Assembly (NCBI GenBank): GCA_015680685.1
Contig: MNCI01001153.1
Span: 751,160-815,159, forward strand
Source: Gnetum montanum
Lineage: Eukaryota > Plantae > Gnetophyta
Direction: 5' to 3'
Length of the DNA stretch: 64,000 nt
Shown: in pieces, positions 5,501-59,900 of the stretch
Position numbering within the stretch: position 1 is the first letter of the stretch
Layout: the number at the start of each line of letters is the position of its first letter
The notes under the pieces: generated by a model
Told to the model about the DNA's origin: nothing
Databases searched by the model: none
The model's input: the letters and a program-made list of their open reading frames with translations, nothing else
Made by a program: the position numbers and the translations under genes

Positions 5501-8500
5501 AATTCTTGGGGGTTGAACATAAATTAACAAAACCGTACCATCCCAAGCTAATAGTCAAGTGGAAGTTAAAAATAGGGAAATAACAAATATACTAACAAGA
5601 ACTATTAGTAAATATAGGAGGGATTAGAGCTCAAAATTCAACACTGTCCTTTGGGCCTATTACTCTACTTGGAAACTTCCTATTGGTTATTTTCCCTATG
5701 AGCTTATGTACAGAAAGTTACCAACTCTTCCCATCCACACAGAGCTCTGTACACTATCAATGGCTTGTGGCCTTGACCTTCACCTAATTCTAGCATAGAA
5801 AGAAAGATTGATGAACCTCAACCTATAAGATGAGAATTGATTGGTGTCCTTATCATCTAACAAGTTGCACAAGGCATTTAATAAGAAATGTCATGACCTT
5901 AGAATAAAAGAAGTAAAATTCCAACTAGGAGATAGGATCCTTTACTAGAATCCCACATAAGTACAACAAAAAACTAAGTTCCAAACATTGTGGAAGGGGC
6001 ATTACATTATCTACAAAACCTTTTCTTCTAGGGTCATGTTAAATTACAAACTTGAAAGCCCAAATAAAATGTTGCTAGTTGACATCGAACAAATAGAGCC
6101 CTTTCATGAATTCAAAAGATCTAGTATTCAAAAAACCTCAATGAATGGATATACATGCTTAATTTTTTAGATCTCATCTTTCCAACTTTGTCATGGGGAA
6201 GACAACTATCCATGCTGAGCCATCTTAGTTTTTCACTTTTTGTTTTAAATTGTTCTTAGTAGATTTTCTCTTTCTTAAATATTTTACTTTATTTGGTTTG
6301 GATTTCTTTCATGATATTCTAATGTTTTATTTTATTTTTTTCCTCTATTGCCAGCAGGACTAAGTGCAAATGTAGCTACTGATTGATGATGGTTTGTACT
6401 ATAATGTTATTTGAATGCTAGTTTCTAGATTCTATTTATAAATTTTGGTATTAATAACTAAGACATGATTTTCTTTTCATGAAAATAGGTAGTGAGTCCA
6501 CGTCATCCACCCATCCACAAAACTCTATGGTGTTCCCTTGTTTTGGAAATATGTGGTCCCTTCTTAAATAAAACATTTAACAAACTTGTGACCTTGGTGG
6601 TTTCCAAACTTGGAAAGAATTAAATGGATAGATAAGGATGTGAATTCAAAGGGATTATATGCTCTTGTTACTTGCCTACTCTCTTAGATGCATGAGTGTT
6701 CTCATGGATTTCTCATGATTCCATTGTTGATCAATAATAGGAAGCTTAAGGTCTTTGCATGGTGTGGTTCTTATAAAAAACAAACAAAAATAAAAAAACC
6801 AAACAATAATGGGATTTTAAAGCATGCCAATTAGACACAGTATTGGGCTACAAGCATTCATTATGGAACTAGAAAGACATATTACCCATGCCTGAAGGTC
6901 CCCTCTAACTAAGGCTCATCTCACTTCTTACTTCTCTTTTTTCTTATTTTAGCAATGGTGATTGATCTATGGGAATATTCTTATAATTTATGGAGGGGCG
7001 AATTTTAGAGTGTCAATGTGAAGTCACTGGAGGTTTTTGATTTTAATTCAGACTAAGGATGGATATTATCAATTCATATTAATAAAGAAATCCACAAGGA
7101 ATTGCATGTGATCATGATATGGAACTCCATTCCACTCTCTACCTTATCCACCTATGCTTTCAATATCTCATCTCACTACCTCTTTTCATGTCTTATTCAA
7201 TTTCTTAGTTTGATGTGTCAAAACTCTTAGGTCATTTCTTTCAAGATCTGATCCTTAACTAACAATGACCATTAATCATCCATGAGGCCCATAGATCCCT
7301 TGGCTTGAGGATATGCAAGGGCATTAAGGGCATGGACCTACTATGGTGACGATCCACTTGCATTCCTTTTGGTTAGGCTAGTTAAATTCCTTATCCTTAG
7401 GCATCTTTGCATTTAAACCTTCTACATTCCACATCATTTATGTCTAGTTATGCATTCCTTCATGGCATTTCTCCATCATTTTCCCAATTAAATCTCCTAT
7501 TTGTGGATTATCTTTCCCTCTTCATGCATTTCATCATGGTCTAGGCTTCTTGGGCTCCCTTTGGACATCAATTTTTTGTGAAAACTCTTTGTTTTTACTC
7601 ATTTTTCAAAGTTAAAAAATTTATCTTTAGGCCCTATCGATGGAGTTAGTTGCATCAACATGATCCTATTGATGCAAGGAAAAAATTCTATAAATGACAC
7701 CCAACAGTTTGCCAATTTTTTCCATTTACTTCAAATGCAAAAGGATTTTTTGCAAATTTTCAAAGCCCCAAACCTTCAAGAGCCCATATCTTTTAAACTG
7801 CTTGTTCAATTACCTTTTTTTTGTTCTTGTAGCTACTAGAGGTGAACTCTTCATCATGGGGGCCACAAACCTTCGATATTTTAATGAAACATTTTTCAAT
7901 TTTTTTCTAACTCCCACAAGGTTTAACTAATAAAATAATATTAAAATCACTAAGTTATGGGAGTTAAACCTCTCCAACAAACTCTAATAGACATTAAAAT
8001 GAAATAATAATAGTAAAATAATATTTAAATAATTGAATTTGTCATGATCACAACTTAGCCAAGTGTAACTAACCTAGATAGGTAAGGTACCCAAGTATTC
8101 TGAAGTTACACATCAAACACTAATCCTTGATGATGTTGTGATTATAGATGGTACCAAGACCTAAGTAGTCATGGGAAGGATGATTTTCTTAACCAAGGGA
8201 AAATTAGCGCAAAACTAGAAGGGGCTAACAAAAATAATCCTAGGAGAAAGTAATAGAAACTCATGTAAGAAGATCTCTTTGGAAGGAGCTTGAAGTGAAA
8301 TTTGTTCATTAGATTCCCCAAACTAATATAGATTAATTGCATCAGGATGATGCACTAGGACCAAGGCCAATCCTTGAGGTCACATTGACTAATGTTTGCC
8401 TTGGGTAGATTTATTCTAGGGATATCCAACATTTAGTTCTCCAAGAATTAAACTTTGGTACCTTCCTAGACTTTAACCTAGAAGATTTCAGAATGCAACT

Positions 8501-13699: not shown

Positions 13700-16600
13700 A
13701 CTCCATGTTAAGTGTAATATGAATTTATGTACAAGTGGTTGATAGGATTGACAAACTCATTGCCATATAAATTATCAAGCTTGAAGGCTTCATTTTCATA
13801 TGCCTTAGTGACCAAGAAAGGCCCTTCTTAGTTAGCTAAGAAATTGTTCACGGGCTCGCAAATAGCCTTGAGAACTAGGTTCCCTTTCTTGATTGGGCAC
13901 TGGTGTAGATTGTGGTGATGCTTTTTCCATTGCTTCTCTTGGTACCACTTGATGCAACCAAGCATTTGGATGCACTCTTCCTTTGTAGAGTCAAGATCAA
14001 TGGTTCTCGACTCATTTTTTTGAGCCTCATCCATGAAGTTTGAGAGGATCATGTGAAGTAATGGAACTTTTAATTCAAGAGGAAACATTGCTTTAGATCC
14101 ATATACAAGACTATATGGTGTTTTACCTATTTCAGTTCTACATGTTATGTGGTAGGCGCAAAGTGCATAGATGAGTTATTCATGCCATCATTGCTTGCTA
14201 TTGCTAAGTGTCTTCTTTAGAAGGTTGATGATGACCTTATTTGTAGCCTCTACTTAGCCATTTTCCTGAGGGTAGTACAATGATGAAAAGGAGTGTTTAA
14301 TGTTGAGGTTTTCATAGAAGGCTTTGGTTTTTGTACTACTAAATCATGACCTGTTGTCTGTGACTATAGTCATGGGGAGACTAAATCAGTTCACTATATT
14401 ATCAAGAATAAATTTGCAAACTTTCTAAGATGTTTTCTTCCTAAGGGGGATAGCTTCTACCTACTTTGTGAAATACTCAATTATGATAATAATGAAGTTG
14501 TGTCCTATGAAAGAATTAGGCGCTATAGGTCCTATGATGTCCAACCCCCAACATTGAAATGGATATGTGATTTGTGTAGTATGTAGTTCGGTCAGTGGCA
14601 TATGTATGAGATTCCCATGCCACTAACACACATTTCATGCCTTGACCATGGAGACATAATCATGCTCCATATAAGGCTAGTAGTAGCCTAGACGCCATTA
14701 CCCTAGTAGCTATATGCCCCTCACATAGTCCTTCATGTACTTGGTCAACAATCTTTTGTGCTTCATTGTTGCTAACACAAGTTAACAATATCCCAACATA
14801 AGGTCTATAACATAAGGTACTGTCACCTATGAGGACATACTACTGCAATTATTTTCACACTATGTCCTTTTGGGTAGGTGCTAAGTTTTATGGGGTTTCC
14901 CCCTATTAGAGGTATGCTTTGATGTTGTCATACCATTCCTAGGCATGAAGTGTACTTATGGATGCAATACTTGGTGTGTGGATTATAGGTTCAATGCAAT
15001 CCATTATGGAAGCAGGCAAAGTAGAGAACATATTCATTGATACACTTAAGCCTAACGTGGCCACTGCGTTAGCTATGACATTTTTGTTGTAAGGAACATG
15101 TTGGACATCTATGGTTGCAAATTTTTTTAATAAGCACTTTGCAAAATCATATTAAGGTTGTAGGTGTTATTCTTTATAGGCATAAACCTTTGTAACTTGG
15201 TTAATAACTAACTATGAATCACCTCAAATTTCTATATTTCAAATACCTAGCTCCTGAGCTACTAGAATACCTCTAAGGAGACCTTTGTATTCTACTACAT
15301 TGTTTGTACAAAGAAACACAAAGTGGTACACAAAAGGTTGAATCTCTCTAGAGGGAAATCTGATAACAACAGCGGCACTACCAGCTTACGTGGTAAAAGC
15401 ACTATCAAAGTGTAAAATGGCCTCAAATTCTATAGGTACCAGGCTTATACTGCTAACATGCTTGTCTAGGAATTCTAGATCTACTATTGCCTGATCATCT
15501 ATAGGTGAATCTATGAGTTGCATGGGTATTGCTTGACCCTTTGTGGATGACTATGCTATGTAATGTAGGTCAAAGTCTGTGGTTATTACTTTCCATCTAG
15601 TTATTTTGCTACTTTCATATATTTTGGTTCTAATGGCCCTAAGTATGTTAGTCTTGCAAATTATGTTGACTTGACTATGGAAGAGGTAGTGCCTCCATTT
15701 TTTATACACAAAACCAAGGAAAGATAGTTTTTCTCCACATCGTTGTATTTTTCCTTGTGCACTATTATTGCATGACTTAAGTAGTTAACAGAAATCTCAA
15801 AAACATCATCTCTCTTTTGACAAAGTAGAGAAACAATGGATGTGTTTGAGGTTGCGAGGTAGATGTAGAAAGGCTTATCTCTTTGTGGAGGATAGATAGT
15901 TGGGAGATGAACTAGCTCCTTATTCAGGTTGTCGAATGCTTCTTGGCATTGATTTGTCCACTCAAAGTTGACTCCTTTTTTGAGTAGGTGTTGCATTGAG
16001 AGTAACTTATTAGTTAACTTGGTAATAAATCTATTTATAAATTATATTCTACCTTGTAATCTGCATAACTCCTGAAGGTTTGCTGGTGGTGCTGAGTTGA
16101 TAATAGCCTTGACCTTATCGGGATCTACGTGTATTCCTATTTCTAATACTACAAAGCCTAACGCACAACTAGTTTTAATGTTGAAGACACACATTTTGGG
16201 ATTAAGGCAAAGGTCATGCCTATGGCAACATTGAAGGACAAGGTTCAAGTCATTTGTGTGGTCATGAGCCTTCTTGGACTTAACCATTATATTATCAACA
16301 TAGTCATTTAGCTATTTTAGAATATATTCATTAAGATGTAGGTCATTACATGTTGGTATCTTGCTCCAGTGTTTTTTAGTCCAAAGGGCATCATTGTATA
16401 GCAAAATTCCCCTAAGGGGTCATGAAGGTAGTAGTAAGTTGATGTTCTAGTTTTATACAAATTTGGTTGTACCTTGAGAACCCATCCATGAAGGATAACA
16501 AGCCATGACCGGTCATAGTATCGACAAGTTAGTCAATACTAAGAAATGGTAAATCATCTTTGATGGTTACCTTGTTTAAGTCTCAAGAGTCTATGAAAAT

Positions 16601-17149
16601 GCATATACCCCTAGTTTTCTTAGAGACAATCATGATGTTTGATAATCAACTGCCTAGATGAACCTAGCTTGGTAGAGTTTAATTATTTCTTCATAGATGG
16701 CTAATGCGATTTCTGGCTTGATTTTATGAGCTTTTTGTTTGAATGGCTTGACACATGGATCTAAGATAATGTTGTGTTGTATTATGTGTGGGTCTAAGCC
16801 CAACATATCTTCATAAGACTATGCAAATACCTTTACATTGTTGTTAAGAACTCTAGAGATACTTTGCTAGATTTATGGCTCCAGTAAAGAGCTAAGCTTC
16901 AAAGTTATTACCTCACCTTTACATGTTGTTGTGGCGGTTTCTATGAGTGGATCCTAAGTTACATCACCAGCTTCTAAATATAAAGCTTGGACTAGATGTT
17001 TTGGCTGGTCTAGTGATGTTTCTAATGATGCTATGTTGGTATCACAAAGAGGTGGTTCAAATTCCAACATCTCATGAGTTTGCCATGGGTTCCATTTGAG
17101 GTTAAAGATGAATGAAGATTCTTGTGTGTGCTCATTTTCCCAAACAATC
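13700..17149 (-). pseudogene. Tat/Ogre pol: RT, RNase H, additional RNase H, integrase (degenerate)
   Basis: ORF remnants IHVDPDKVKAI, FYIYLATS..NYLSH and MFPLEL..KKGNLVLK. aRH FVCTNNVVEY at ~15290-15320. Integrase YYPQ.NG..VEATNK at ~14235-14280. Confidence 0.85.
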
Positions 17150-22979: not shown

Positions 22980-25900
22980 ATGTTTCCTAACTTGATGTGG
23001 GTTAGGTGATGTGTATGGCTTGGAAGACGTGAGGCAATACTCTTCTAGGTTGTCATTAGCTATTGAAAAAGGCAACTATGCCCATATAGTTTCTTCATGT
23101 AGATCATTAGTTTTGCTTGTTTCACTTTTCAAACAACATTGGATTTTATTGTAAACATGTGATGCATCTTTAGAGACTTCTATCTCTAACCCTTGCTCTG
23201 TGTCTATATTGTTGATACCTCAAGGGACTATGTCGTTAGCAAAGATCACCACTTCTCCATGTGCATAGTGTAGGTGGATCTCTTGGTGGATTGGTGAAGA
23301 GCAACCCTAATCAGGCTAACCAAGATCTTCCTAAGATTAAATTGAACCTAGGCATATCCTCTACCACAATGAATTCTACATTAGTGGGGAATTGATCCCC
23401 TACCATGAAATCAATAGTGACAGTTCCCTTGACCATGACACGTGCCACATTGAATGACTTACAATAAGAAGTTGTTGTGGGCTTGATTTGACCCACTAGG
23501 CCTAGCTTGTCGAAAACAAGGAATAGGATTACATTGGTTGTGGCCCCATCATCAACGTGCATACTAAGAATCCTATATTGACCTACACGAAATTATTATG
23601 AACATAGGGGCAATGGTTACTTGACCCATTTCAAGATTGGCTTTAATGGCTTCATCATGAAAAGTTAAGAGGTTTGACTATGGTTCTTCAATTGTAGGTG
23701 GAAGCATGATGGCATGAATGGCTCTTTCCTCTACTATCATATCTTCCTTAACAAGAATGGATGCCAACATGTGGATCCAAGCCTCATGATGTGCAGAAGA
23801 AGTCATTATTAAATCATATAAGCTTAAAGTTGTATTTATTTTTTTAAAATCTTGTCTAACCTATGTAAGTGCATCTAGGAAATCTTGTCCACTATCTAGT
23901 TTTTTGGTGGTTTTTATTTCCTCCGTATGCCCTAAGATATGAATTCCCTAAGGAGGAGAGGACTTAGATTTTGATTGGGAAATAGGCTTCTAGGCTTTGG
24001 TAGTTGCTTGTTGTAAGTGCATTTCCATCTTATCTTCAAGTGGTGGCACCATGGGAACCATTGACAAGGGGGTGGGCTTAGGGGGGCCTAGTGTAGTGTG
24101 TTCCCTAATCATCTTGTTAGCTAGGTGCTCATCATGTTTCCTTAGGTGAGAAGGTTATGATGTAGTTCCAACCACTAGACTCTGGGCAGATAAGGGGTTT
24201 GTATGTTTTGGCATCCTTTCAACAAAAGATGCTTAGGTTGTTGTTGCAACATGCTATGGGTCCTTGACCACAAAAGTTGTTGTAAGTGCTCGTGATGGTA
24301 CCTTGATGACAAAGGGGGCCTATGGCCTAGTTGACATTGAAGCTTCAACACCATGGGAAGGCACATGAACCATAAATAACTCATGTGTTGACTCTATGTT
24401 GTCATCAATGCTAATAGCATTAATGGTATATCCTACACTGTTAACATTCAATGGGTCCTTATAGACATTCATAGATTGGTTCTCTATCTGAATAGGACTA
24501 TTTTCATCAAGGACTAGCTTACCTTGATCAATCGTGCATTGGATGTCATCTTTCAATGATAAACAATAATCCATGTCATGACCACACAACTAGTGATAAT
24601 TGCAAAATTGATACAACCTAAAATTTTTGGGTACTTGAGGCTCATTGGGCATGGTTACAAAGGGTTCTTGGAGGATCTCACAATACTTCTCATGATGTTT
24701 GTGGGCATCTTTTAACATTTACATATGTTGAATGCGCCTAGCACTCAGTAGTTGATCCAAAAGTTCTGATGGCTTATTCAACAAAGGGGTATATTTTGAG
24801 TGATCCTTGTACTCAAAGTTTAATCTTGGAAAAGCTTGCATTGTGGCTATTGTTGATGTGGGTTGGTTGATTCCTACATTGCTAAAGTTGGATGTTTTGT
24901 TGGCAGTGATTAGGGCCTTAGGTGCCTTAGACACTTACTTGTTGTTGTTGGTCTTGGCTTCACTAGCCATAGTTTCCATAGTAGTTATCATGGCTTTCCC
25001 TTTTTCTTTATCTTTCTTTACATGTGTGTTCTTGTAAGCTATGTAAGACAAGTCTTTGCTAGCCTCTACTACATCTTGTATGCTCTTTGTTTGAGCAAAG
25101 TCTTGGCTAAGGAAGCATGAGGCTAAATAATATAGGTTAAATGTAATGAAATTGTTTACAGTGCCCTTAAAAATGGCCACTAAATGGGATTCAGCAATTG
25201 GCTCACAAATCTCATTTAAGGTAACACTCCAACATTATATGAATTTCTACATGGGTTCTAATGATTCTTATTTAACATTCATGAGCTAGTCTAGAGTGAC
25301 TTCTAGCTTCAAGTTGTACTTGAAGTGAGTTACAAACTAACTTAGCAACTCCTCTAGAGTTGAAATGGAAGTGTGAGGAAGCACACGATACCAATCTAAG
25401 GATTTGCTAGTCAGGGACATGGAAAAGAAATGAATGACTACATGTGGCAATGGTTGTAGTAACAAAGACTCAGAATGAAAAGTGACTAGGTAAGCATTTG
25501 AATCACCTTCTCCATTATATTTCATATATTGGGAAAGCTAGATTCTAGGAGGCAACATGAGCAGAGGAATGACGGGGCTAATAGGATCATCTTGCTAGAA
25601 TTCCATTACATGGACTATTTCAAAGTTGGAGGCTTTAAGCCACTTAACCTCATTAGTCAAGGTTTGGATGAGCTGGAATGCTTGATCTAAGCTCAAGGAT
25701 GTTGCAGAAGGTTGTATTAGTTGTACCATTGTTGGTGCCATTAGAGTAGCTACCATGGATGGTGCTGTTGGTGCAACTACTAGTCGTGTTGGGGGTGCTA
25801 TCAGAGTAGCTCCCATTGGTGGTGTTGTCTGAGTGGCCCACAACCCTGTGGGTGGTCCTACCAAAGCGACTACCATTGCTGGTGGGGTTTGAGTGGCCCC

Positions 25901-26450
25901 TAGCCTCGTAGGTGGTGCTACTAGAGTAGCTACCATTGGTGGTGCTATGGCAACGATTACCTTCCCTGATATTGTTGGAGTAGCCCATAGCCCTATAGTT
26001 GGTTGTGCCATATGTGAAGCTTGATATGTTTGCAGTTGCATATACTATGGCATCTGAGACAATTGAGCAGTAGGAAAAGGCATCACTGCCCACCACATAG
26101 TTGAAGTTGGAACTACTATTGGTGTTGGGATTAACATAGAATAGGTAATGGAAATAGGCCTTGTTTGTGGCTACGATGTGGGCATAGTATGCACATATGG
26201 AAATGTGAGCATCACAGACATTGGCTATGAAAATTGAATAGACTACGAAGGAAAAATAAAGGGAAAGGAGGCCAAAGGCCCTACATGCTATTGCTTTGAT
26301 AGAATTTGATGGCTACCTACCACAAAGAAAGGTTTGGAGTATAGAACTATCGTAGCCATCACAAAGGAGGTAGAAGACTATGACTGGTGTGAAAGGAACA
26401 TAGAGGTAGACTATGAGGCTAAGGCATAGAGTGGGCCACCACCTTCGAAA
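22980..26450 (-). pseudogene. Tat/Ogre gag-protease (degenerate)
   Basis: Gag core KYNGEGDSNAYL..FFSMSLTSKSLDWY; zinc-knuckle remnant GHDMDYC; protease VDDGATTNVI..FNLILGRSWL (23311-23562). Confidence 0.8.
25730..26000 (-). repeat. 60-bp coding tandem repeat (Pro/Thr/Ala-rich 20-mer) in the gag N-terminal region
   Basis: About 4.5 copies translating as PPMVATLVAPPTRLGATQT-like repeats. Confidence 0.8.
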
Positions 26451-34360: not shown

Positions 34361-34834
34361 TGATAAAGTCAAGTTTTTATTACAAATGACATAATAGCAA
34401 TGACATCGTATCAACAATGTCATTGATACAATGTCAACACTATTAATATGTCATTGTTGATATGATATCTCAGGATGTGTGTAGCACTATAAATATGACA
34501 CTTGGATGCACAATTCTCTAACTTTTCATTTCCATAGTAACCAAACTATTTGAATTTCATTTCTTAAATTTAGGTTTAGTAACTAGTAGTGTGAATGCCT
34601 ATAGTGGTGTGTGTCATAGTGAACGGAATCTTTGTTTGAGTAGTTTGTACTTGGGCATTAGTTGTGAATAGAAATAAAGATCAAAGCTATTTTCCATCAT
34701 TGTAGCATTCTCCTAGTTTACTGTTTTCACTTATTATAATGTTTACTATTTTACTATCATAATAATTTATTTTCCAAAGAACTTTATTTTCACTTGTTAA
34801 TAGTAAGTGGAATGAATATGACTAATTTTGAGGG
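34361..34834 (+). repeat. 5' LTR of element B, left part
   Basis: TGATAAAGTCAAG.. colinear with 53500-53970. Confidence 0.85.
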
Positions 34835-34847
34835 TGGTATCGGAGCC
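34835..34847 (+). promoter_or_regulatory. Minus-strand primer-binding site, tRNAiMet
   Basis: TGGTATCGGAGCC versus the canonical TGGTATCAGAGCC (one change, compatible with a G:U pair). Confidence 0.9.
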
Positions 34848-35000
34848 TTGTTGCGGTTCTTCGTCATTCACCGCCAGGGGTGGACGTGAGGGTTGCTCAT
34901 AAGCTCGTTCGTGCAGTGCGAGTAAGCCACGCCGTAACGGCCGACGGACAGGCGAGTAAGTCGTGCACGCTAGAATCTGAACGCAGAGTAGGCACGTCTA

Positions 35001-38000
35001 ATGGCGAGTTCTTCCCGAAGACCAACTCCAGGTTCTCAATCTACTTTCTCTTATATTCAACGTTTGTCAAACTATTGCTCCTCAGCGAATGCTAGTATGT
35101 TGCCACCACCTCCATGCCAAAAAGATTTCTATCCCAAATCCTCATTGCACACTTTTGAATCATTTCAGTCTATGCATTTTAGTGAATGTGATCTCGGTAT
35201 TGCTGGCTCTGGCCTTCGTCCAGTAGCTCTTACTTTTTTTGACCCGGGGGAGGTTGCTAAATGGAAAAAAGCAGGTTATCAATATATCCATCTTGCTGAA
35301 ATTGCTATTCACCTTCATCCACACTTCAACTATCATCTCAAAAAGCCTTACTGGATTGCGTTAATAGATAGGAGATTTAAATCGTTTCAAGAAGCCATTA
35401 TAACACAAGCTAAAGGTAGGTTAGTATCCGATGCTCTAATTATAACGATTCCTAACTTTACTCTCTCGCTTTCTGATCCACATTTGTTTAATAGTCTAAT
35501 GCTTATTACTTATATTCCTATTGATATTATAGATCGAAGTGTTTATTGCACAATAGGTACAAGGTTAAGTTTTAAATTATTTATTTCAGTCAGTATCCAA
35601 ACACTCTTACCTTTTGGCCAACAAGCTCTCTCTGTTGGTTCAACAAATTTAGAATACGGGACACAGATTAACACAGAGGATCTTCCGATCCATAGGCTTT
35701 TTCCAGACCTAGAAGATCCGTTAGAAGAATACTATGAGCAGAAAAGACCTAAAAAGTCTTTATTCAGATCATCATCTAAATCTCGGAGATACTATGTAGA
35801 ACTACAACCACCAAAACTCCTTCCTTATGATCCATTAGCTCCCAAACCTATAAAACCCACAAAACCAGTAATCCTGTTTAAAAAACAAAAATCAACTTAT
35901 GAAGAACAGGAAGAAAAAATAAAAAAGATGGGAAAAATGTTCAAAGAACTAGGTATCACTTTAGATCCTAGGAGAGTCATAAAACAAAAGGGAGAAAAAC
36001 CTGTAATCATCACTGAACAATCAGAAACAGATCAAAAAGGAAAAACCATTCTAGAAGAAGTCTATACATCTAGTTCTAGTTCTGAAGATGATGTACCATG
36101 CTCAATAAAATCATCACAAAGTTGTACGCATAAGAATCTACATAAGATAGATCATGACATTAGGTGTGTTGAGTGTGATGAGTTATTAAGGATCAACATG
36201 AATACGGAAGAACCAAAAGAAGTAGCACATATGATGCAATATAAGCCATCTGTAGAACAACCTTCTGAAGTCATTAAACTCCATAATTGGACTAACCATA
36301 AGTTATCCTATGTAAGTGACCAAAACTTAATGACATATGCAGAAGTAAAAGAAGTACAAAGAGATGTAAAAGATTTGCATAAAATATGGGTTCCTAAACA
36401 AAAAAATGGAAAATCTAAGGGTAAGAAAGAAAAGAAACCTGATCCGTCTGATCTAGATGGAATTTACTTAGATTCACCACCTATCACTCCTCCTAAAGGA
36501 AAAAAGAAATCAACAATACCTTATGTCCCAACTTATGTCCCAAAAAGACGACCAGTACATACAATTCCAAAATCTGAAAAAGGGAAAAAAGAGGAGGAAG
36601 AGATTAATGCTAATGAAGAAGATAACGAAACCCTTTATATTGGAAGTGAAGGATCTTTAGATGAAGAAGAAAAGAAAATGTTACAAAAACAAGGAATGAT
36701 CTTCCAAGATCCTAAAGATTTGACAGGTATGCAAATCCGAAAGACATCAGAAAAACCACCACCATATTTTAGTATGGACAACAAATCTATTAGAGAAAGA
36801 CAAAAAGAGATTGATAAAATCAGCGGTTTCATCGCTAGGCAAATTGTCTTAGAAAAGAAAACATATGAACATGCCATACTCAACGCCACATTAAATTTCG
36901 AGGGTATGTTAAAACGTTGGTGGAATTTCATAGAAGCTCCTGTACGAAAAAAATTATTAAATAATCCGCATGTTATTTTCTTAAATGCTATTACAAAAGA
37001 ATTCTTAGGAAATAAAGCTGATAGGGATAGTGCATATAGAACTTTGTTTTATAGTTCAAGATTACATAAGATTCAGGACATGTCTCCATTCCTTGACATC
37101 ATGGAAGAATGGTATTACTATGGAAAACTCATACATGACGTAGGTGCAAAAGAACATCTGTTAGGATGTCTTCCAACGCCTTTTGCTAGTTATTATCGAG
37201 CTCAACTTCAACATGAAGAAAAGGATCTCGAGGAAATGAGTTTTAGTGCCATCCGTCAATTCCTTGAAAAAGTCACAAGGGATCTGTGTGTCCAGCAAAA
37301 AACACAAAAATTAGTAGGATCCTTAACTAAACAAATAGGTAAAGACTTATGTTTACAAATGTGTCCTGAAGATAATTTTGGACAGCTAATTAGAAATAGA
37401 AAACAACAGTCTGAGCCATGTGTATGCAAACCTACACAACGTACATCACAAAAGTACTCAAAACCAAAGAAAGTCTGGAAACGGAAATTCCAGCCAAAAA
37501 TCAAACGAAAGAATTGGCCACAAAAACCTTTTAAAGGCATGTTTAAACGAAAACAAGGGCCGTATAAAAACAAGGAAGTCAGGTGTTTCATTTGTTCAGG
37601 GAAGCATTATTCTAACCAATGCCCAAAAAAGGATAATCATCCTCAACGCATTAATTTCATTGAAACAATGAAACTTACAGAAGATGATTTCTTCCTAACA
37701 TATGATTCTGACTTATCATTCTCAAATGGGGATATTTATTTAGAATCTTCAGATCAATATTCTAGTGAAATGGAATTCGAAGATATTCCTGACTACCCCA
37801 ATGAACCAGGCGAGTTAAATTATGATACAGATTCTTCAGGGTATATGTATCATGTTTACATGAATGAAGAATCAGGAAGTGATGATCTCTATGAAAGAGA
37901 TCCAACATATTCCATGTTAAAAAGCCAACTACGCCAATTAGAAAAGAAATGGCAAAAGGTTCCTTTAGATGACTTACATAAATTTAGGGCCTACAAACAC

Positions 38001-40190
38001 AAAGTAAAATCTAAACGGAATGAGATTGAAACACATAAGCAAATGATTGAGGAATCATTTGGTATATATCAAGATTCCCAGAATCCAAACACCGTAGATT
38101 TTGAAGAGGAGATACAAACACCACATACTGAAGAAAGAGCAGTTACACCGGATATACAAACTTCTATGTGGCGACAGTTTCGTATCAAGCAACTCAAGAA
38201 GTATCTTCAACAGGCCTCCGAGGAACTTGAACGCTTAGAACAACAAGAAGAGAGTTGGCAACAAGCAGAATATGAGAAGGAAACAAAACAGGTAAGCGTA
38301 ATCCTAGAAGTAAACTGTAATACTTCACGACCAATCTTACCTGCCTGTACATTTAATATATCATGGCCTAAATATCATAGGTATACAATAGATTTTTTGT
38401 TTGACACAGGCGCGGAAGTATCACTTGCTAGAGAAGAAACAATTCCATCTTGTTTTTGGGAAGAAAAGGAACCATCCCACATTTCCTTCAACACCCAAAA
38501 AAGATTACTCACAAAGCAAGCTAAGTTACCCGTTGTAATGCCTGATAAAAAAATAGTGTATTTTATTGTCTGTCAATTTCCTTTACCCTCTTATGATTGT
38601 TTAATAGGATCAGACAATTTACAATATTTTGATATTACGATTACTAAGCAATTTATCAAACTAGATGAACAGAAGTTCCCTAGGGTAAATGCTAGACAAC
38701 AGTTTAAAAATCAAAAACACCAAAAACATAATCAGAAAAGAGAAACTTGGATTGTTAACCAAATCGAAAAATATCAACCAAGTTTTGACGACATAAAAAC
38801 TCAATTACTCCAATTTGCAAATGATGACCCGACTGTGTTTCGTCATAAGAAAGAACATTGGTGTCAGATTGAATTACAAGATGGAGTAAAAGTAAAGTCT
38901 ACTGCACAACATATAGGAATGTCTCCTAGTCTCAGAAAAGAATGTGAATCAGAAATCCAAGAATATTTACAAAGAGGTTTAATACGACCAAGCACCAGTA
39001 TGTTTGCTTGTGCTGCTTTCTTTGTAAACAAACGAGCCGAATTAGTCAGAGGAAAAAAACGTTTAGTAGTTAATTATAAACCTCTGAATGATATTATTAA
39101 ATCAGTCCAACATCCTATTCCAAATAAAGATGATTTATTTCAACGACTGCCACATACGAATATCTATTCCAAGTTTGATTTGAAATCAGGATTTTGGCAG
39201 ATCCAGATTCAGGAATCTGATCGTTGGAAAACGGCTTTCACAGTACCCGGTGGATTATATGAATGGAATGTCTTGCCGTTCGGCATCAAAACTGCACCAT
39301 CCATTTTCCAAAAAATGATGGATTCTATTTTCCATTCTTATCCTTTTATATTAGCCTACATAGATGATATTTTAGTTCTGAGTAAATCGGTAAAAGAACA
39401 TTTAGATCATTTGCGTATTTTTTCTGACCTCATAGATAAAAATGGACTTGTCCTCTCACCAACAAAAATGAAGATCGGACAGTCTAACATTGAATTTTTA
39501 GGTTTAGAAATCTCTACTGGTATTATAAAATTACAACCACATATAGTCCAAAGTATTGTTCAGTTTCCTGATATCTTAGAGAACAAAGTCCAGATACAAC
39601 GGTTTTTAGGCTGCATAAATTATGTTTCTGGTTTCTTTAAGAATATAGCTAAGGAACGAGATGTATTAAATATATTATTACAAAAACATTCTCCTCCATG
39701 GACCCCTGCATGTACTGAGGCTGTGCAGAAGATCAAACAAGCATGCCAAGAATTGCTGCCACTGTTTCTTCCAGGTGAAGGTAAGTTCATCCTTGAAACT
39801 GATGCCTCTGAATGTTTTTGGGGCGCCACTCTAAAACAAGAACAAAACCGTACGATCAGGATCTGTAGATATGTTTCTGGAAAATTTAATGAAGCACAGC
39901 AGAAATATCACAGTTCTCATAAAGAACTTCTAGCCATTGTTAAGGGCATAGAAAAATTTCGGTTATTCCTCCAACCACAACGTTTCATCGTCAGGAGTGA
40001 TTTAAAACATTTTGACAAGTATCTACAATCCAAAAACCTAACAAAGGTGGCTCATACACGGCTAATCTGATGGAGTTTATTTTTGGCTAATTTTGAATTC
40101 GATAGTGAATATATTGAAGGCTCAAAAAATTGCCTTTCTGATTTTTTAACTAGAGAGTTCCAACTCTCTAGTAGTACTAATGTTTTATAG
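35001..40190 (+). CDS. Caulimovirid ORF1 polyprotein: 30K movement protein - coat protein with zinc knuckle - aspartic protease - RT - RNase H. About 1729 aa, with one premature TGA at 40068-40070
   Basis: MP: YIHLAEI..LIDRRF..PNFTLSLSD. Knuckle: CFICSGKHYSNQC (37584-37622). Protease: FDTGA (38400). RT: AAFFVNK..RLVVNYKPLN, SKFDLKSGFWQI, YIDD (39357). RNase H: ETDAS..KELLAI..RSD. The frame continues past the stop as WSLFLANFEFDSEYIEGSKNCLSDFLTRE to TAG at 40188-40190. Confidence 0.93.
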
Positions 40191-41140
40191 TTTTATTTTC
40201 AGAACTACTCTGTAGCGAAGGATGGACTCTTCGTTCCTCAAGGAGATTACGTCCTAGTTTACCAAATGAAAGATTTCTTAGTTTTCCTCAATATTTTAGT
40301 GAAACTAGTAGATTTGGTAATGCATGGACTGCTTTCTGTAATGCCACAAGATCTCAAAGTTCTGATGCCATCATCACTCAAAAGGTTTTTTCAGCCCTTC
40401 CACTGCCTGCAAGAAGATCTCAATGGGATCAAATTCCAGCTCCATACCTTTTCCTGGCCACAGATGTGAATCTCACTAATCTAGAATTCCGTAACTGGTA
40501 TTCTGCTGATTGTTTAAACTGGCCATATTACCAGCCAAGTGATTTTCATGTTTACCGCATCTCTTTTAGTCCCCTCAGTGCACCGCCAGACAATGATGAA
40601 TTATTCTGGAATTGGTGGGCTAAATTCGGTCATTCCCCTTCTCATTTACCAGCCAATTATCCTGGTCCTCTTCGCACAAGTCTCTATGGCTACCGGGGTG
40701 ATTTCTCATTCTATAGGAATCCTGATCACATGGCCTGGAATTTTTTACACATGGCATCCAACCCAGTCTATTTTCTCATTACTTGCATATCCAAAAGGAC
40801 AGACTGGCAACTCACATGGGGCGAAGCTTTTTACCAAGATGTGTACACCGCTAATGCCTATGATATCTAGCACCACTGTCACATCCATTTAAAAGTCCCG
40901 TATACTTTAGAGCTTTATTATATGGACCGCAGGATTGATGAATATCGTAGCTCTGGAGGAAAGGAGATCAAACTTTATCTGGTTGGCGAGCACTCAGAAG
41001 ATGCTGATGATAGCACGGATAGCATGCCTAATAATTCTCCCGGACGATATGATTACAGCTCTGAAGACTTCCACAACCATACAGACGATTCTGATGGACA
41101 TAGTGTCGATTTTGGTCCAAATAGTCCACCATCACGTTAA
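40181..41140 (+). CDS. Caulimovirid ORF2, ~319 codons, no 5' AUG, one premature TAG at 40868-40870; function unknown
   Basis: One frame is open from 40181 and joins track ORFs 40466-40870 and 40922-41140 through HHCHIHLKVPYTLELYY. Contains FWNWWAKFG and an acidic Asp/Ser-rich tail. Confidence 0.75.
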
Positions 41141-41143
41141 AAA

Positions 41144-41225
41144 GCTGTCTGCCACAATCTCTTAAAGTGGATCCGAATCCTAAAAGGCTGTCTGCCACAA
41201 TCTCTTAAAGTGGATCCGAATCCTA
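41144..41225 (+). repeat. Perfect 39-bp direct repeat, period 43, upstream of the viral TATA box (candidate enhancer)
   Basis: GCTGTCTGCCACAATCTCTTAAAGTGGATCCGAATCCTA at 41144 and 41187. Confidence 0.9.
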
Positions 41226-41275
41226 GAAAGTAGATCGTCCCAGTTGGCATCCATTAATGTAAGGCGGTTTGTAAA

Positions 41276-41285
41276 CTATAAATAG
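41276..41285 (+). promoter_or_regulatory. TATA box of the pregenomic RNA promoter
   Basis: CTATAAATAG in the intergenic region after the last ORF, the usual caulimovirid position. Confidence 0.8.
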
Positions 41286-41519
41286 CAATGTGTGTGTGTG
41301 TAAGCATATGGTAGATAAGAATGCAAGTAGCATAAGTGAGTAGTCGGCAAGTGTGAGTTTCTTTCTGCAAGAGTGAGTAGTTATAAGGAGATGATATCAG
41401 TTTCTTGATGCTCTCTGCTCAGAAACTAAGCATTCTCTCCACTGAAAGAGAAATCGTTCTGTGATGCGCTTTGCTCAAGAACAAGAATTCCTTTCAGTTC
41501 TGTAAATACTGGTGTGTGC

Positions 41520-41525
41520 AATAAA
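41520..41525 (+). terminator. Viral polyadenylation signal
   Basis: AATAAA ~240 nt after the TATA box, with upstream TGTAA (41501) and downstream GT-rich sequence; would define the terminal redundancy. Confidence 0.7.
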
Positions 41526-41610
41526 ATGATTTGTTTTGGCATATCTGTGTGTTATTTGGTCTGCATTCAAATGAGCGTATGTATTAGTTCTGTGTGAACG
41601 CTGCGTACTG

Positions 41611-45100: not shown

Positions 45101-48100
45101 TGTCCTTGGAAATCTCAAAATATGATGAAGCTGACATCATTCAAAGATGCAAAGTTCCATGCATCACATACAATAATAATGGGTGCAATTGCATGTAGAA
45201 AATATGGCCAGTTCAATAGAGAAATACCAAAGCATGTAAGAGATGTATAGAAGAAATGTGTATGCAAAAATCTCTGTATGCAGTAACCACTTAACAAGAA
45301 GGCACCCAATGGTTGGTCAAAAATACAAAGATAATATCCAAGAAATACATGGAACCAACTAATCAAACCATAAGTGCTTATGTAGATGAAACTGATAGAC
45401 TAGAGAATTTAAGGAAGAAGCATCCCTATTCACATGAAGGTTAGAAAGAAGAAATAGATTGGGGCAGTTAGAAGAAATAGATTAGCAGCATGAGAGTATG
45501 CTTTCTTAAAAAATAAGAAGTTGATGATAATAAATGCTAACTTGAATGAAGATCAAAAAAATAATTTATTGGAAGTTATTAACAAGTAGCCAACAATGTT
45601 CATGTGGTCCAATGATAAGATCACATGCAGTAATCCAACAATTTTTCAACATTAGATATATACCAACCTACTGGTGAAACCACGATGCCAACCCAAAAAA
45701 GGCTCAATCCAAAACTAAAAGTAGTCATGTAGGGGATGAAAAAAATTACTAAAGGTAGGATTCATCTATTCTATTGCAAATAGTAAATGGATTAGTCGTT
45801 TAGTAATCATTCCAAAGAAAGGAGGCAAGTGGTTCGTGTGCATCAATTTTCAAATGTTGAACTCTACCACATTCAAGGATCATTTTCTTTTTTTGTTTGT
45901 TTACCAAGACCTATATACTATTGCAAGACATGAGTACTATAGTTTTCTAGATGCGTACATTGGATACAATTAGATCTGCATTGCACATAAGGACTAGGAG
46001 AAAACAATGTTCACTAGTCCATGGAAAATGTTTACCTACAAATAGATGCTATTTGGTCTTTGCAATGCACCCTTCACATTCCAAAGACTCATACTCAGTA
46101 TCTTCCAAAAGTAAATAAGAAATGACATTGAAGTTTTCATGGATGATTTTTCCACATACTGGCTAGATTTTAGAAAAGCATTGGACCATTTAGAGTAGCT
46201 ATTGAATTGTTGTGTAGAGACAAATCTTAAGCCTAAAGGCCATAGATAGTGAAAGATGTTAGATGTCAAATAGAACATTACTTAGAGGCCATAGATAGTG
46301 AAAGATGTCAAATTTCATATAGAACATTACTTAGAGGCCACATATATAGTGAAAGATGTCAAATCATTCTTAGAATATTAGGATACTATTGAAGGTTCAT
46401 AGAGAATTTCTTAAAGATTGCAAAATCATTAGTAGAACTTACAAAGAAGGATGCATCCTTTGAATAGATAGAGTCTTGTGAAAAGGAATTTGAAACCCTA
46501 AATAGAAGCTAATCAAGACACCAATCCTTCAATCTTTTAATTGATCCAAGCCTTTTCATATTACAATAGATGCTTCCAAGTATGTGCTTAGTGTAGTATC
46601 AACACAACTAGATGATCAAAAAAGACCCTACTATATACACCATAGCAGAAGCATAACTAGGGCAAAAGTGAACTATACCACAATAGAAAAGGAGCTTATG
46701 ACCATGTTGTATGCACTTGAAAAGTTTCTTCATTATGTGCTTGGGTACTAGATTTCTGTCCATATCAATCATAGTGCCATTTGATTTCTCATAAATAAGC
46801 CAATGGTTAGTCCCAGAGTGATTCGATGGCTTGTTATTTTACAAGAATTTGACATCACAATGATTGTAAAAAAGGGCATAGAGAATGTTGTAGTTGATCA
46901 TTTTTCAAGGCTTATATGGAATTCCAAAGATCATGTAAAACCATTATCTGACTAATTTCCTAATGATATTTGTTCACTCAAATAGTTATGGCTATAGCAT
47001 TAATGGTGAAGTCATACATAGCTTATTACATCACTTACTTAAAAACTCAAGAGATTCCTAATTTATGGAGAAAAGAAACAAAAAGAACAATTCCTTCAAT
47101 AGGTAAAGAGATATATGGAAATCAATGAAAACTTGTACAAGATTTGTGCAGATGGGTTAGTTAAATGATGTGTGCCAAAATGTGATCAATAGTGGATCTT
47201 ACAAGATGTCCATTAAGGTCCATGTGGAGGCCACTATGCAAGGAAAATAATGGCACTAAAGTTAATGATGGTAAACTACTTTTGCCCTACCTTGTTTAGA
47301 GATGCCCACAACTTTGCATAATGTTGTGAAATGTGCCAAAAAGATGGAGGAATTACGGTTAGGGATGAAGGGCCACAGTAGTGTATACAACCATTAGAGC
47401 CATTTGATATATGGAGAATTTATTTTATGGGATCTATAACACCTATGTCGAATGGAAAAACATAAATAATTGTGATCATGGATTATTGTACAAAGTGGGT
47501 AGAGGTAATAGTAGTAAAATATTGCATCATTAAAATAGCTACTAAGTTTTTTCAACAACATGTGGTGAATGGATTTGGAGTACCCAACATGCTTATATCA
47601 AATAAAGAAATCCATTTTACTAGTGATGATTTTAGAAAAATAATGCAATAATTGGGTGTAAATCATAAATTTACTACACCATATCATCCCCAAGCCAATG
47701 GTCAAGGTTAGTAACCATGAAATTACTAACATTTTAACTAGGATAGTTTGTAAGTTTAGGAAGGATCAGAGCACTAAGCTTAACAATGCTTTATGGGCCT
47801 ATAGGACAACATGAAAATTATGCATAGGATATTTACCATATGAGCTAGTTTATGGTAAACAATTGATGCTCCATATCTACATAGAGCTTTGAACTTTAGC
47901 TACTGTTAGTGAACTTGACTTATACTTGAGCTTAGCCTAGAAAGAACGAATAATGAATCTAAATCTCTTAGATAAAAATAAAAATGAGGTCCATAAACAC
48001 TACTCCAAACAAAGGTATGATGCAAGGATAAGACAAGTGTTTATACAACTAGGAGATAAGGTCCTTTATTATAATCCCACTCATGTTCCTCAAAAATCCA

Positions 48101-48300
48101 AATTTCAAAAGTTTTGGAAGGGACCTTACTTCATCCAAGAAATTTATCCTTCAGGTACCTTCCCCATTTTTCATCCATCCAACCCACATAAGCTCATCCT
48201 TGTCAATATCTAATAGGTCAAACTCTACCATGAATATCCCAACTCTTTCAAGGAGTCCATCCAATTTGTCCAAATATCTTCAACTTGTTTCCTCTTTAGA
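42168..48300 (+). pseudogene. gag-pol of element B (degenerate; no additional RNase H seen)
   Basis: Protease LLDFGS at ~44821; RT MLFGLCNAPFTFQR and FMDD (46136); RNase H DASK..NYTTIEKEL; integrase H..CGGHY..CEMCQ, TTPYHPQANGQ and WKGPY. Confidence 0.85.
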
Positions 48301-53499: not shown

Positions 53500-54325
53500 T
53501 GGTAAAGTCAAGCTTTTGTTACAAACAACATCATAGCAATGATATCATATCTATGATGTCATTGATACGATGTCAACACTCTTAATACATCATCATTAAT
53601 ATGATGTCTCAAGATGTGTGCAGCCCTATAATCATGATGCTTGAATTCATAATTTGTGAGCTTTTCATTTCCATAGTCATCAAACTCTTACAATTTTAGT
53701 TCTTGAATTTAAAATTAGCAACTAGGAGTGTGAATGCCCATAGTGTGGTATGTCATAGTGAATGGAATCTTTGTTGGAGAAGTTTGTACTTGGGCACAAG
53801 TTGTGAATGAAAATAAAGATTGAAGCTATTTTCCACCATTGCAACATTCTCCTAGTTTACTATTTTCACTTAGCATAATGTTTACTATTTTACTAGCATA
53901 ATACTTTATTTTCCAAAGCACTTTATTTTCACTTGTTGATAGTAAGCAAAATGGATACACTTGATTTCAAGCATTAAGTGTGATCATTTGGTAATCCCAA
54001 TAGTATTATTGCTTAGTTCTTAGCTCACGTAGTAGCATAATACGTGGTAATCCTAGTGATGATTACATGAGCTCAAGATGTATTTGGTAAATCAAGAATG
54101 CTTATTCATCACCATAGGCTAGAATAGATTTACTTACTCATTCCTAGTTAGATTTGGTACCTACTTTTATCTTTATCATGCCTACACTTTGGAGAAATAG
54201 TGGCCAATCAACATCACTTATCATATGCCTCACTACAAGCTAAACCATACACAGATTATGATTAAGTGAAGTGTGAACACTCATAACTTGTATGGTTGGG
54301 TGTTGGATTACTCCACTACTCATCA
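53500..54325 (+). repeat. 3' LTR of element B (uninterrupted)
   Basis: TG..CA termini; PPT at 53491-53499. Confidence 0.9.
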
Positions 54326-56933: not shown

Positions 56934-59900
56934 TGTTAGGTGTATTGTTAATTTTAAGTTTAAAACACCTTCATGTTGTAACAATTTCCATGTTGACAAA
57001 TTATTCTTGGCATGTTGGCTGAAAATAACAAAAGCCAAAGTATATAGTATGTCAAAAGAATATGTAACCACTCACACCCAATTTGACCATGATTAATTAT
57101 GAATTATAACCCCATAATTTAGCTTTTACCCAAAGCATGGCATTATGAAGACTATATAAGTGGATGCTTTGGTGGTCTTACAATCACACCTTCACCTAAT
57201 CAATGGGTGTATGAGGCATAATTCAAGTTTTAGTCTCTTCTTCTTGTGAAAACTTGATCTAAGCTTGTTGTAAGTATCAAAGAAAAGAAGACTTATATTT
57301 CTAAGTCTTTGTAAGAGCTAGAGTCATTGCTAGGGTTCTCATATGCTTTCCCCAAGATAATTTCTTGTATTCTTGATGCATTTCTTCTAATTTCATAATT
57401 GAATATCTATTTCTATCGCTTGATATTACTTTATTATCTTACTCAATTGATGTGTAAATTAAAAAAAATAGTATCAAAGCATAGTTCATTTGATTCTCAA
57501 GGCTCTTATCTCATTAAGTGCTTTAAGATGGTAACGATTGCTAAGTACATTGAAGAAATAAAAAAGTTTAATAGCAAAAACTACAATCTTTGGAAGCTCC
57601 GAATGGAAGATTTGCTATTTGAAAAGAAACAAGGTGTATGCATCAATGGAATTAAATAAAATATCATGAAAGGTAAAGACTAGAATCAGTTAGATCATCT
57701 AGCTTTGGAAACAATTTGTAAAGGTATTTCTAATCCTATGCTTATAAATTTACAAGATGAAGAGTCTGCAAAAGGATTATGGAATGTTATGGATAAGATA
57801 TACCAATATAGTTCTTACTCAAATAATTACATCTTAAAAGCTAATTATTATTGTTAAAGATGTCTAAAAATAATGCTATTAATCTCATCTTATTGATTTC
57901 AATACTATTTTGAGCTAATTATAATCAATTGTTAGTAAGATGGATAAAAGAGATCAATGTATTTCCTCATTACAATTACTTCCTAATTCATGGAAAAATA
58001 TTGTTAGAATACTACCAATATAAGTACCTCTTTAAAATTACTTTTTACAATAAAAAAATAAAGAATAAATACACAAGGAAAATTTGAAATCAAAAGGATA
58101 CTCTTAAAAGGAGGGTATTAACTATGAAGAAGGTTTTTCACGAGTGGTTAAGTTAACATTGATAAGATCTTTAATGTCTTTTGTAGCCACTTTAGATCTT
58201 AAACTTGAACATATTGATGTTAAGACTATGTTTCTTCATGGAGATCTTGATAAAGAAATCTACATGCAATAGCTTGAATGTTATGTGGTTAAGGGCAAGG
58301 AAAACATGATATGTCTCTTACTAAAATACTTGTATGGGTTGAAACAATCCTCTATGATGTGGTATAAGAAATTTAATTCTTGCATGATAACATCTAGTTT
58401 TGTATGGTTGTTAACAACCCTTGTATTTATCTAAAGGAAAATTCAAAAACTTGTTTAAAATTGCTATTTTATATTGATGATATTTTGATAGTAGGGAACA
58501 ATGTGCAAGAAATCACTAAGTTGAAATGCCAAGTATCATCTCAATTTAAGATGAAGGACCTTGGTACCAGCAGAAAAGCATTAGACATGAAAATTAAAAA
58601 GGATAAAAAAGAATAAAAGTTATGGCTTGGTCCATCTAAATATGTTAATAAATTTTTAGAAAAATTTAATATGTAGGATTGTAAGTTAGTAAACACTCCA
58701 TTATTTGTGATCATGAAATTATAAATGGAGAAATGCCCTAGAAAAGATGAAGAAATGTAGAAAATGCGAAAAATCCCCTATACAAATATTGTAGGAAGCC
58801 TCATGTATGCAATGGTTTGTAGTAGGCTTAATATTACATATGTAGTAGGATCTAAGAGTAGGTTTATGTCTAATCCTTGTAAGAAACATTGCATGGCCTT
58901 AATAGAATTCATAGGTATATTTGAGATACTATTAAGTTTTCCATCTATTATGAGAAAAGTTCCTTTGGATTGCATGGGCTTGTGGATGTAAATTATAGAG
59001 GTGAACTAGATCACCAAAAATCCATAAGTTGATATGTTTTTTAAAATAGACATAGGTGTGGTTAACTATATTAGCAAAAGACAAAGCTTTGTTGCATTCT
59101 TAACAACAAAGGTAGAGTGTGTAGTAGGTTCTTAAGCAATAAAAGAAGTAGTTTGGCTACAATGATTTGTCAAAGACTTTAGATAAGAATAAAAGAAAGT
59201 AAACATCTCTTGAGATAACCAAAGTGCAATATTTCTAGCAAAGAATCCCAAGTTCCATGTGGAAAAAACACACTATGATAAATTATCATTTTATTTGGGA
59301 TCAAATTAAAAAAATAAGGATTTCTCTAAAAAAGGTTCCTACATCAAAAGATCCACTAGATATGTTAAGGTAATTCTTGTGCATAAGTTTAACTAGTGTA
59401 GAAAAGAAATTCGATTGTTAAAATGTAAAATACAATTGTTGCTCCTAGCTATAAATCCTTAAAATAAATAACCAATGGAAGAATCTTAGATATGTTGTTA
59501 ATTTTAAATTTAAAACACCTTCATGTTGTAACAATTGCCATGTTGCAAAATTATTTTTGGCATGTTAACTAAAAGTAACAAAATCCAAAGTATGTAATAT
59601 GTCAAAATAATATGTAACCACTCATACCAAATTTTATCTTGATCAATTATAGATTATAACTCCATAATTTGGCTTTTACCCAAAGCATGACATTATGAAC
59701 ACTTTATAAGTGGATGCTTGGGTGGTCTTACAATTACACCTTCACCAATTATAGGGTGTATGAGGTATAATTCAAGTTGCAGTATTTTCTTAATATGAAA
59801 GCTTGATCCAAGCTTGTTTTAAGTCTCAAAGAAAAGAAGCCTTTGATTTATAAGGCTTGCTAGGAGCTAGAGCTATTTCAGGGTTTTTTTTATGTTTCCC

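Follow-up and report, generated by a model that had tools for sequence, protein, structure and literature searches.

An AUG-less second open reading frame behind a predicted splice acceptor in an endogenous caulimovirid of Gnetum montanum

How is a viral gene translated when its reading frame offers no AUG for well over a hundred codons? The question is raised by an endogenous member of the Caulimoviridae in Gnetum montanum (Gnetophyta), lying in a stretch of 64,000 nucleotides (nt) of contig MNCI01001153.1 (positions 751,160 to 815,159, forward strand), which we call the window. The element carries a polyprotein gene, ORF1, and a second open reading frame (ORF), ORF2, which has no start codon of its own. 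With a probability of about 0.55, we infer that ORF2 is expressed from an RNA spliced from a donor in codon 11 of ORF1 (35031) to an acceptor at the 5′ end of ORF2 (40203). Splicing into the acceptor as such is likely. The argument rests on the following features:

34835..41608, + strand: endogenous caulimovirid, 6.8 kb, about one genome length, linearised at its primer-binding site and lying inside a host repeat
35001..40190, + strand: ORF1 polyprotein, MP (movement protein)-zinc finger-AP (aspartic protease)-RT (reverse transcriptase)-RNase H, Pfam PF01107, PF00077, PF00078 and PF17917/PF17919
35029..35037, + strand: predicted donor CAG/GTTCTC, cut 35031/35032, phase 1, after ORF1 nucleotide 31 (codon 11)
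39778..39786, + strand: alternative donor AAG/GTAAGT, cut 39780/39781, phase 1, ranked first of 319 and the best consensus in the element
40175..40181, + strand: predicted branch point TACTAAT, the sole TACTAAY on the + strand of the element
40182..40202, + strand: U-rich tract with CAG, predicted 3′ splice site, containing the ORF1 stop, top of 451 AGs
40203..41140, + strand: ORF2 coding exon without its own AUG, with a premature stop at 40868-70 and an acidic C-terminal tail, recognised by its homolog P0108 and its codon bias

A coding frame without a start codon and the predicted acceptor before it

The ORF2 frame is open from 40181 to 41140 with one internal stop (40868-70), and its first in-frame ATG, at 40730, comes 176 codons past the acceptor. 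The initial annotation had described such an AUG-less frame with a single stop, and every coordinate it gave, for the frame, the branch point, the acceptor, both donors and their phases, proved correct. A ribosome scanning from upstream would run into 13 out-of-frame ATGs (between 40180 and 40686) ahead of the in-frame one; between the acceptor and 40730 there are 12.

Is the frame a gene at all? A homolog and a coding codon pattern that begins at 40205 show that, from the acceptor on, ORF2 truly is a gene. The homolog P0108, a separate protein, aligns to ORF2 residues 109-286 with 36% identity (E 7e-22) through the internal stop, and the conserved stretch starts at 40505, upstream of the ATG at 40730. 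Over the first 100 codons from 40205 the third position is rich in T (46 versus 26 and 25) and poor in G (9 versus 19 and 24), a bias that was reached by none of 10,000 shuffles and equals that of the conserved core. The first 108 residues of ORF2 gave no significant similarity to P0108 residues 1-80 in any frame (best p = 0.06). One search for ORF2 homologs returned none among 65 candidates and another P0108 alone among 1,570; the two other matches in the representative library, P0109 and P0110, were dismissed as repeat-protein noise, and Atlas matches (<0.9; RES domain) as weak. ORF2 has no match in Pfam, NCBIfam or PDB sequences, no related locus was found in viral or prokaryote contigs, and its predicted structure is of low confidence (pLDDT 30). 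The long +1 frame that is open over 40191-40469 is not regarded as a gene in its own right, since T-ending codons in the ORF2 frame account for it.

The AG at 40201-2 is preceded by 14 T in 20 nt and ranks first by T content among the 451 AGs of the element. By three criteria chosen after the site had been seen, it alone of the 451 combines a branch motif with a YAG and 12 or more T in 20; a loose branch motif by itself is found at 95 of them. The cut at 40202/40203 is phase 1. ORF1 starts with the ATG at 35001, carries a premature stop at 40068-70 and ends naturally with the TAG at 40188-90, which sits within the acceptor region, 11 codons past the RNase H end motif. A span of 28 nt (40175-40202) holds not only the branch point and the acceptor but also the ORF1 stop and, at 40180, an out-of-frame ATG whose A is the predicted branch A.

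The predicted intron, its donor and the reads

In the mechanism that we propose, a fraction of the pregenomic RNA would lose a predicted intron of 5.17 kb (35032-40202), and the first 31 nt of ORF1 would be joined in frame to ORF2, yielding a protein of about 322 residues that uses the AUG of ORF1. Unspliced RNA would serve polyprotein synthesis and reverse transcription, and spliced RNA would give the ORF2 protein. Joining 35031 to 40203 produces 322 codons in frame. This donor is the 5′-most of 19 good ORF1 donors; among the 319 GTs, scored with a plant donor matrix, it ranks 23rd, while the drop in GC over the cut places it 2nd and the T content past the cut 8th.

Reads of seven of eight runs bearing one organism label were aligned (all but X8; X1 consists of contigs and may be DNA), four runs over the whole element and four over 34800-35500 only, with a clip threshold of three reads. 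In X5 four reads, of a related virus, match exactly up to 35031 (agreement 1) and then continue in letters that match nowhere on the stretch, the depth going from 8 at 35016 to 4 at 35036. One X1 contig match ends at 35033, which is compatible with a cut at 35031 if the next exon starts with GT. The whole-element alignment shows 24 of its 76 loose read ends, and by a rough estimate the chance of one such clip at a donor named beforehand is a few percent. We regard the read support for the donor at 35031 as moderate, because the clip is seen in one run and unlisted in four further alignments, with clips nearby in X3 that look like divergence.

The second copy in X1 bears on the junction itself. 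Contigs 6 and 7 span 40086-40460 and 40434-40821; they carry 14 and 15 substitutions, respectively, and are free of gaps. This copy, related to the element and about 96% alike, thus passes through the ORF1/ORF2 junction without an indel, a result that addresses indels and comes from one copy. The initial annotation had named an indel in the T-runs, placing an ATG in frame in other copies, as what would overturn its splicing proposal; none is seen in this copy. The acceptor, the coding frame and the intact junction support that proposal, but no read joins either donor to 40203; the four X5 reads break at the donor at 35031 and support it, yet the clip appears in none of the four runs of the second alignment.

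Several observations weigh against splicing from 35031 to 40203, or weaken the signs of it, and should be read together. Most aligned reads are less than 90% alike and therefore derive from related viruses. A joint into 40203 is seen in none of the four whole-element runs, where raw-read depth around the acceptor is 0.33-0.7, and X1 contig 6 passes unspliced across it. The clip at 35031 is listed in none of the four runs aligned over 34800-35500 at the three-read threshold; X3 has four reads clipped at 35034 that resemble diverged read-through, beside indels at 35035-35039, so clips here also come from divergence. The clipped X5 reads continue into sequence absent from the stretch. The donor itself is mediocre at 23rd of 319, and since 10 of the 19 good ORF1 donors are phase 1, an in-frame fusion amounts to a coin toss. 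A run of 176 codons without Met has p = 0.034 at the Met frequency of ORF1, and P0108 is likewise poor in Met (3 of 278). Finally, P0108 is recorded with an initial M, in a protein record only, at a place corresponding to about 23 codons inside the ORF2 exon.

Other features of the reads concern the element more broadly. In the stranded runs X3 and X4 nearly all coverage of the 5′ region of ORF1 has a single orientation, and the A-tails lie on the + strand. Reads of related copies in X2, X3 and X4 end in A-tails within the 5′ part of ORF1 (35191-35317, 35745 and 35864), which may reflect premature polyadenylation or internal priming. A joint from 37786 to 39867, found in an X1 contig and in three reads of X5 and X6, skips 2,080 nt covering protease and RT; its ends are not GT-AG and its short side is 29 nt, and it is reminiscent of the B components of bipartite florendoviruses, which lack RT.

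The element, its relatives and its boundaries

The element is an endogenous member of the Caulimoviridae. Its Pfam domains are MP, AP, RT and RNase H, with the integrase family not among the matches (the zinc finger was recognised by reading the translation); no long terminal repeats were found around the insert, it has a tRNA-Met primer-binding site, and its RT groups with caulimovirids. In an RT-RNase H tree of 27 rows (midpoint root, no named reference caulimovirid among the rows) it falls in a 23-row caulimovirid clade (100/100) as opposed to four retrotransposon rows. There it groups with P0002 (99/97), the closest relative of ORF1 (43% identity across 99% of its length), which ends four residues past the RNase H motif. 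The pair joins the caulimovirid sequence of a Taxus chinensis protein on a long branch (96/93), outside the clade of five florendovirus-like loci and outside the citrus elements. The Taxus chinensis protein is the nearest named row, with 53% identity in the RT core; identity to the florendovirus-like loci, 52-58%, straddles a 55% cutoff and stays below a 62% one.

Is it then a florendovirus? The element has the two-ORF layout of that group, a polyprotein followed by an ORF2 in another frame. A florendovirus ORF2 would be expected to show homology, a size of 45-58 kDa and its own start, and here ORF2 has no tblastn match in 31 metagenome loci, whose florendovirus-like label is inferred, no Pfam match and no AUG. 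It does share a trait of the rice tungro bacilliform virus (RTBV) type: the distal ORF begins at a strong acceptor, which is in phase with an AUG-carrying exon upstream. We do not assign the element to the florendoviruses; its ORF2 would be expressed in the manner of RTBV ORF IV.

The remaining parts of the element are:

34835..34846, + strand: tRNA-Met primer-binding site, from sequence, one letter off the WolV1 motif (PMC13308828)
41277..41284, + strand: TATA box of the predicted pregenomic promoter, from sequence, its role inferred from the organisation of the family
41308..41343, + strand: leader short ORF of 11 codons, with a weak phase-1 GT at 41335/6 (54th of 319) as an RTBV-like alternative donor
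41520..41525, + strand: AATAAA, predicted polyadenylation signal, from sequence

Homology to the host repeat halts at 34818 and restarts at 41609, as compared with an uninterrupted copy at 53957-53979. At the left end of the insertion 16 nt (34819-34834) are unmatched, as are about 21 nt of the host repeat at the site (41609). Since the TATA box (41277) and the AATAAA (41520) lie 3′ of ORF2, the copy amounts to about one genome length, cut open where the primer-binding site lies, and a viral promoter is therefore absent in front of ORF1. The leader accordingly sits at the 3′ end of the linear copy, with the ATG of the leader short ORF about 30 nt past the TATA box, at the predicted transcription start; pieces of the leader show no stronger folding than shuffled sequences (z 0.4 to -1.8), and we do not claim a shunt hairpin. 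As the integrated copy lacks an upstream viral promoter, the proposed mechanism would belong to the ancestral virus or to other copies. Decay is light: the 2,040 codons hold two internal stops (40068-70 and 40868-70), which is about 1% per susceptible site, and no frameshifts were seen.

Just past the ORF2 stop and upstream of the TATA box there is a 47-nt tandem duplication (about 41142-41235), possibly a duplicated enhancer; an X1 contig skips 47 nt there. Elsewhere in the window tblastn finds decayed Ty3/gypsy-like pol remnants (3800-6030, 13700-16640 on the minus strand, and 45490-48290) and a copia-like remnant (58070-58700), and at 25653-26312 a 60-nt unit is repeated in tandem in degenerate form, with a frame open for 219 codons on the minus strand.

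Other routes to ORF2 and what the arrangement may mean

What other routes could lead to the ORF2 protein? The acceptor might be used with another donor: with 39780, replacing most of RNase H by ORF2, with 35274, 35415, 36420, 36726 or 36903, or with the leader donor at 41335, in an exact copy of the RTBV layout. The donor at 39780, first of the 319, would give an ordinary intron of 422 nt, phase 1 holds for 10 of the 19 good ORF1 donors, several donors of cauliflower mosaic virus (CaMV) share one acceptor (passages of PMC4498817), and florendovirus B components fuse MP-coat protein (CP)-AP to an ORF2 homolog (passages of PMC4241990). We nevertheless consider another donor unlikely, with no clip or joint at any of these sites among the 24 of 76 loose ends shown; RNA support at 39780 is nil where coverage is almost nil, and the leader donor is weak, with its ATG at the predicted transcription start. 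A slightly less likely explanation still is that this copy has lost an ordinary AUG near the ORF1 stop, through a small indel or a point change, and that the splice motifs are there by chance. It draws on the ATG at 40180, which speaks against the spliced route by lying in a florendovirus-like place, 26 nt past the RNase H end motif and in the +1 frame, as in eight of the ten loci compared. Among the 31 metagenome loci the junction could be compared in the ten that have this motif (the 21 without it were left out, and L001 and L002 are identical there), and all ten have an ATG 23-33 nt past it. One in-frame near-cognate codon also stands upstream of the acceptor, P0108 starts with M, and florendovirus ORF2 starts abut or overlap ORF1 ends (Supplementary Data 3 of PMC4241990, in part). 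Yet the 96% copy has no gap, decay is about 1% per site, ORF1 has no frameshift, and the ATG at 40180 opens just 11 codons. A lost AUG would also leave unexplained why the best of 451 acceptors stands at this very spot, while the ten loci have none above 9 T in 20 (6-9, versus 14 here). As an observation on these loci, in eight of the ten (for example L005:1484-1520) the ATG lies exactly 23 nt past the motif and overlaps the end of ORF1.

Could ORF2 instead be a C-terminal extension of the polyprotein, reached when ribosomes slip by -1 at the U-rich codons that precede the ORF1 stop? Or was it part of a single ORF until this copy broke? The two frames overlap over 10 nt (40181-40190), and relatives hold 296-392 residues past RNase H in one ORF, as do PnV1 and WMV1/2. 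However, the canonical slippage heptamer X XXY YYZ is absent from the sequence, and the nearest sizeable hairpin is more than 20 nt downstream and not significant (z -1.5); the closest relative, P0002, stops soon after its RNase H motif, P0108 stands as a protein of its own and no indel is seen in the second copy, which makes such an extension improbable. Very improbable, in our opinion, is that translation begins at a codon other than AUG, or at the AUG of 40730, via a separate subgenomic RNA or reinitiation. RTBV ORF I does use AUU as its start, and for florendovirus ORF II an earlier proposal invokes a subgenomic RNA (both in passages of PMC5902531), but the sequence conserved with P0108 begins at 40505, ahead of 40730, the 12 out-of-frame ATGs stand in the way, and neither of the two ORFs resembles a transactivator (TAV) gene.

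The spliced route from 35031 to 40203 has known counterparts. RTBV excises a 6.3-kb intron, fusing a leader short ORF to ORF IV to give P4 (passages of PMC4498817 and PMC5902531). In RTBV, as it would here, the removal of one big pregenomic intron places the last ORF in frame behind a short upstream coding exon, and neither has a TAV gene; however, the RTBV donor lies in the leader short ORF, whereas the favoured donor here is in codon 11 of the polyprotein, whose AUG would be shared. The parallel drawn in the initial annotation is correct, and a leader candidate that it did not consider, the weak donor at 41335, exists here too, although the reads favour a donor within ORF1. RTBV also belongs to another lineage, the likeness being drawn from layout and not from the P4 sequence. 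In CaMV 35S RNA, donors in the movement-protein ORF are fused in frame to a downstream ORF (ORF I-ORF II); the CaMV fusion proteins are undetectable and dispensable, while here the fusion would be the sole route to ORF2, across 5.2 kb (passages of PMC4498817). Florendoviruses share the MP-CP-AP-RT-RNase H polyprotein followed by an ORF2 of unassigned function in another frame, but their ORF2 measures 45-58 kDa and its annotated starts lie where ORF1 ends (passages of PMC4241990), as opposed to about 322 residues and no AUG; the ORF2 of the element is unlike those of the comparison loci, and their RTs group apart. To account for the expression of ORF2 in florendoviruses, one paper suggested leaky scanning (PMC4241990) and another an RNA that is either subgenomic or spliced (PMC5902531), with no data in the passages concerned. 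The endogenous caulimovirids of gymnosperms (gymnendoviruses, PnV1, WMV1/2 and WolV1) have the same domain order as the element, whose RT groups with the caulimovirid sequence in a Taxus chinensis protein; PnV1 and WMV1/2 differ in having a single ORF and WolV1 in an ORF2 of 568 residues. No passage on splicing was found for them in the texts searched (PMC6256638, and others in part). As of 2015, tungro- and caulimoviruses were the only ones for which splicing had been described (passages of PMC4498817), and the literature searched, including parts of PMC13658181, PMC10377300, PMC13308828, PMC7660458, bioRxiv 2022.02.23.481439 and bioRxiv 158972, yielded no description of an endogenous caulimovirid whose ORF2 lacks an AUG and is spliced, although subscription papers and sequence supplements may bear on this. 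Among these systems the proposed mechanism most resembles the splicing of RTBV ORF IV, but it would borrow the AUG of the polyprotein itself.

Where would such a gene come from? ORF2 was likely once a C-terminal extension of a single polyprotein, which would explain its missing AUG. The relatives P0016, P0025, P0003 and P0015 carry 296-392 residues past RNase H in one ORF (some of them automatic gene models), and residues past RNase H within one ORF are also found in PnV1, WMV1/2 and Amborella trichopoda B virus. ORF2 shares size and place with these extensions; no similarity was detected in a comparison with the C-terminal extensions of 108 proteins, so that descent from one of them is a proposal. 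More tentatively, at slightly below even odds, the two-ORF lineage may have split the C-terminal domain off the polyprotein, so that it can be made only by excising almost the whole polyprotein as an intron. With such a split, both viral proteins would share one AUG and the host spliceosome would set their ratio, as in retroviral env expression.

The arrangement bears on how two-ORF caulimovirids without a TAV gene express ORF2, and the element supplies exact predicted splice coordinates in a third lineage, beyond tungro- and caulimoviruses. If the spliced route is true, AUG-based ORF finders would miss or truncate such genes (46 codons would be returned here), and maps of endogenous caulimovirids may therefore undercount ORF2. 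It would also represent a route from a protease-released domain to a separate gene, along which a start codon was never gained.
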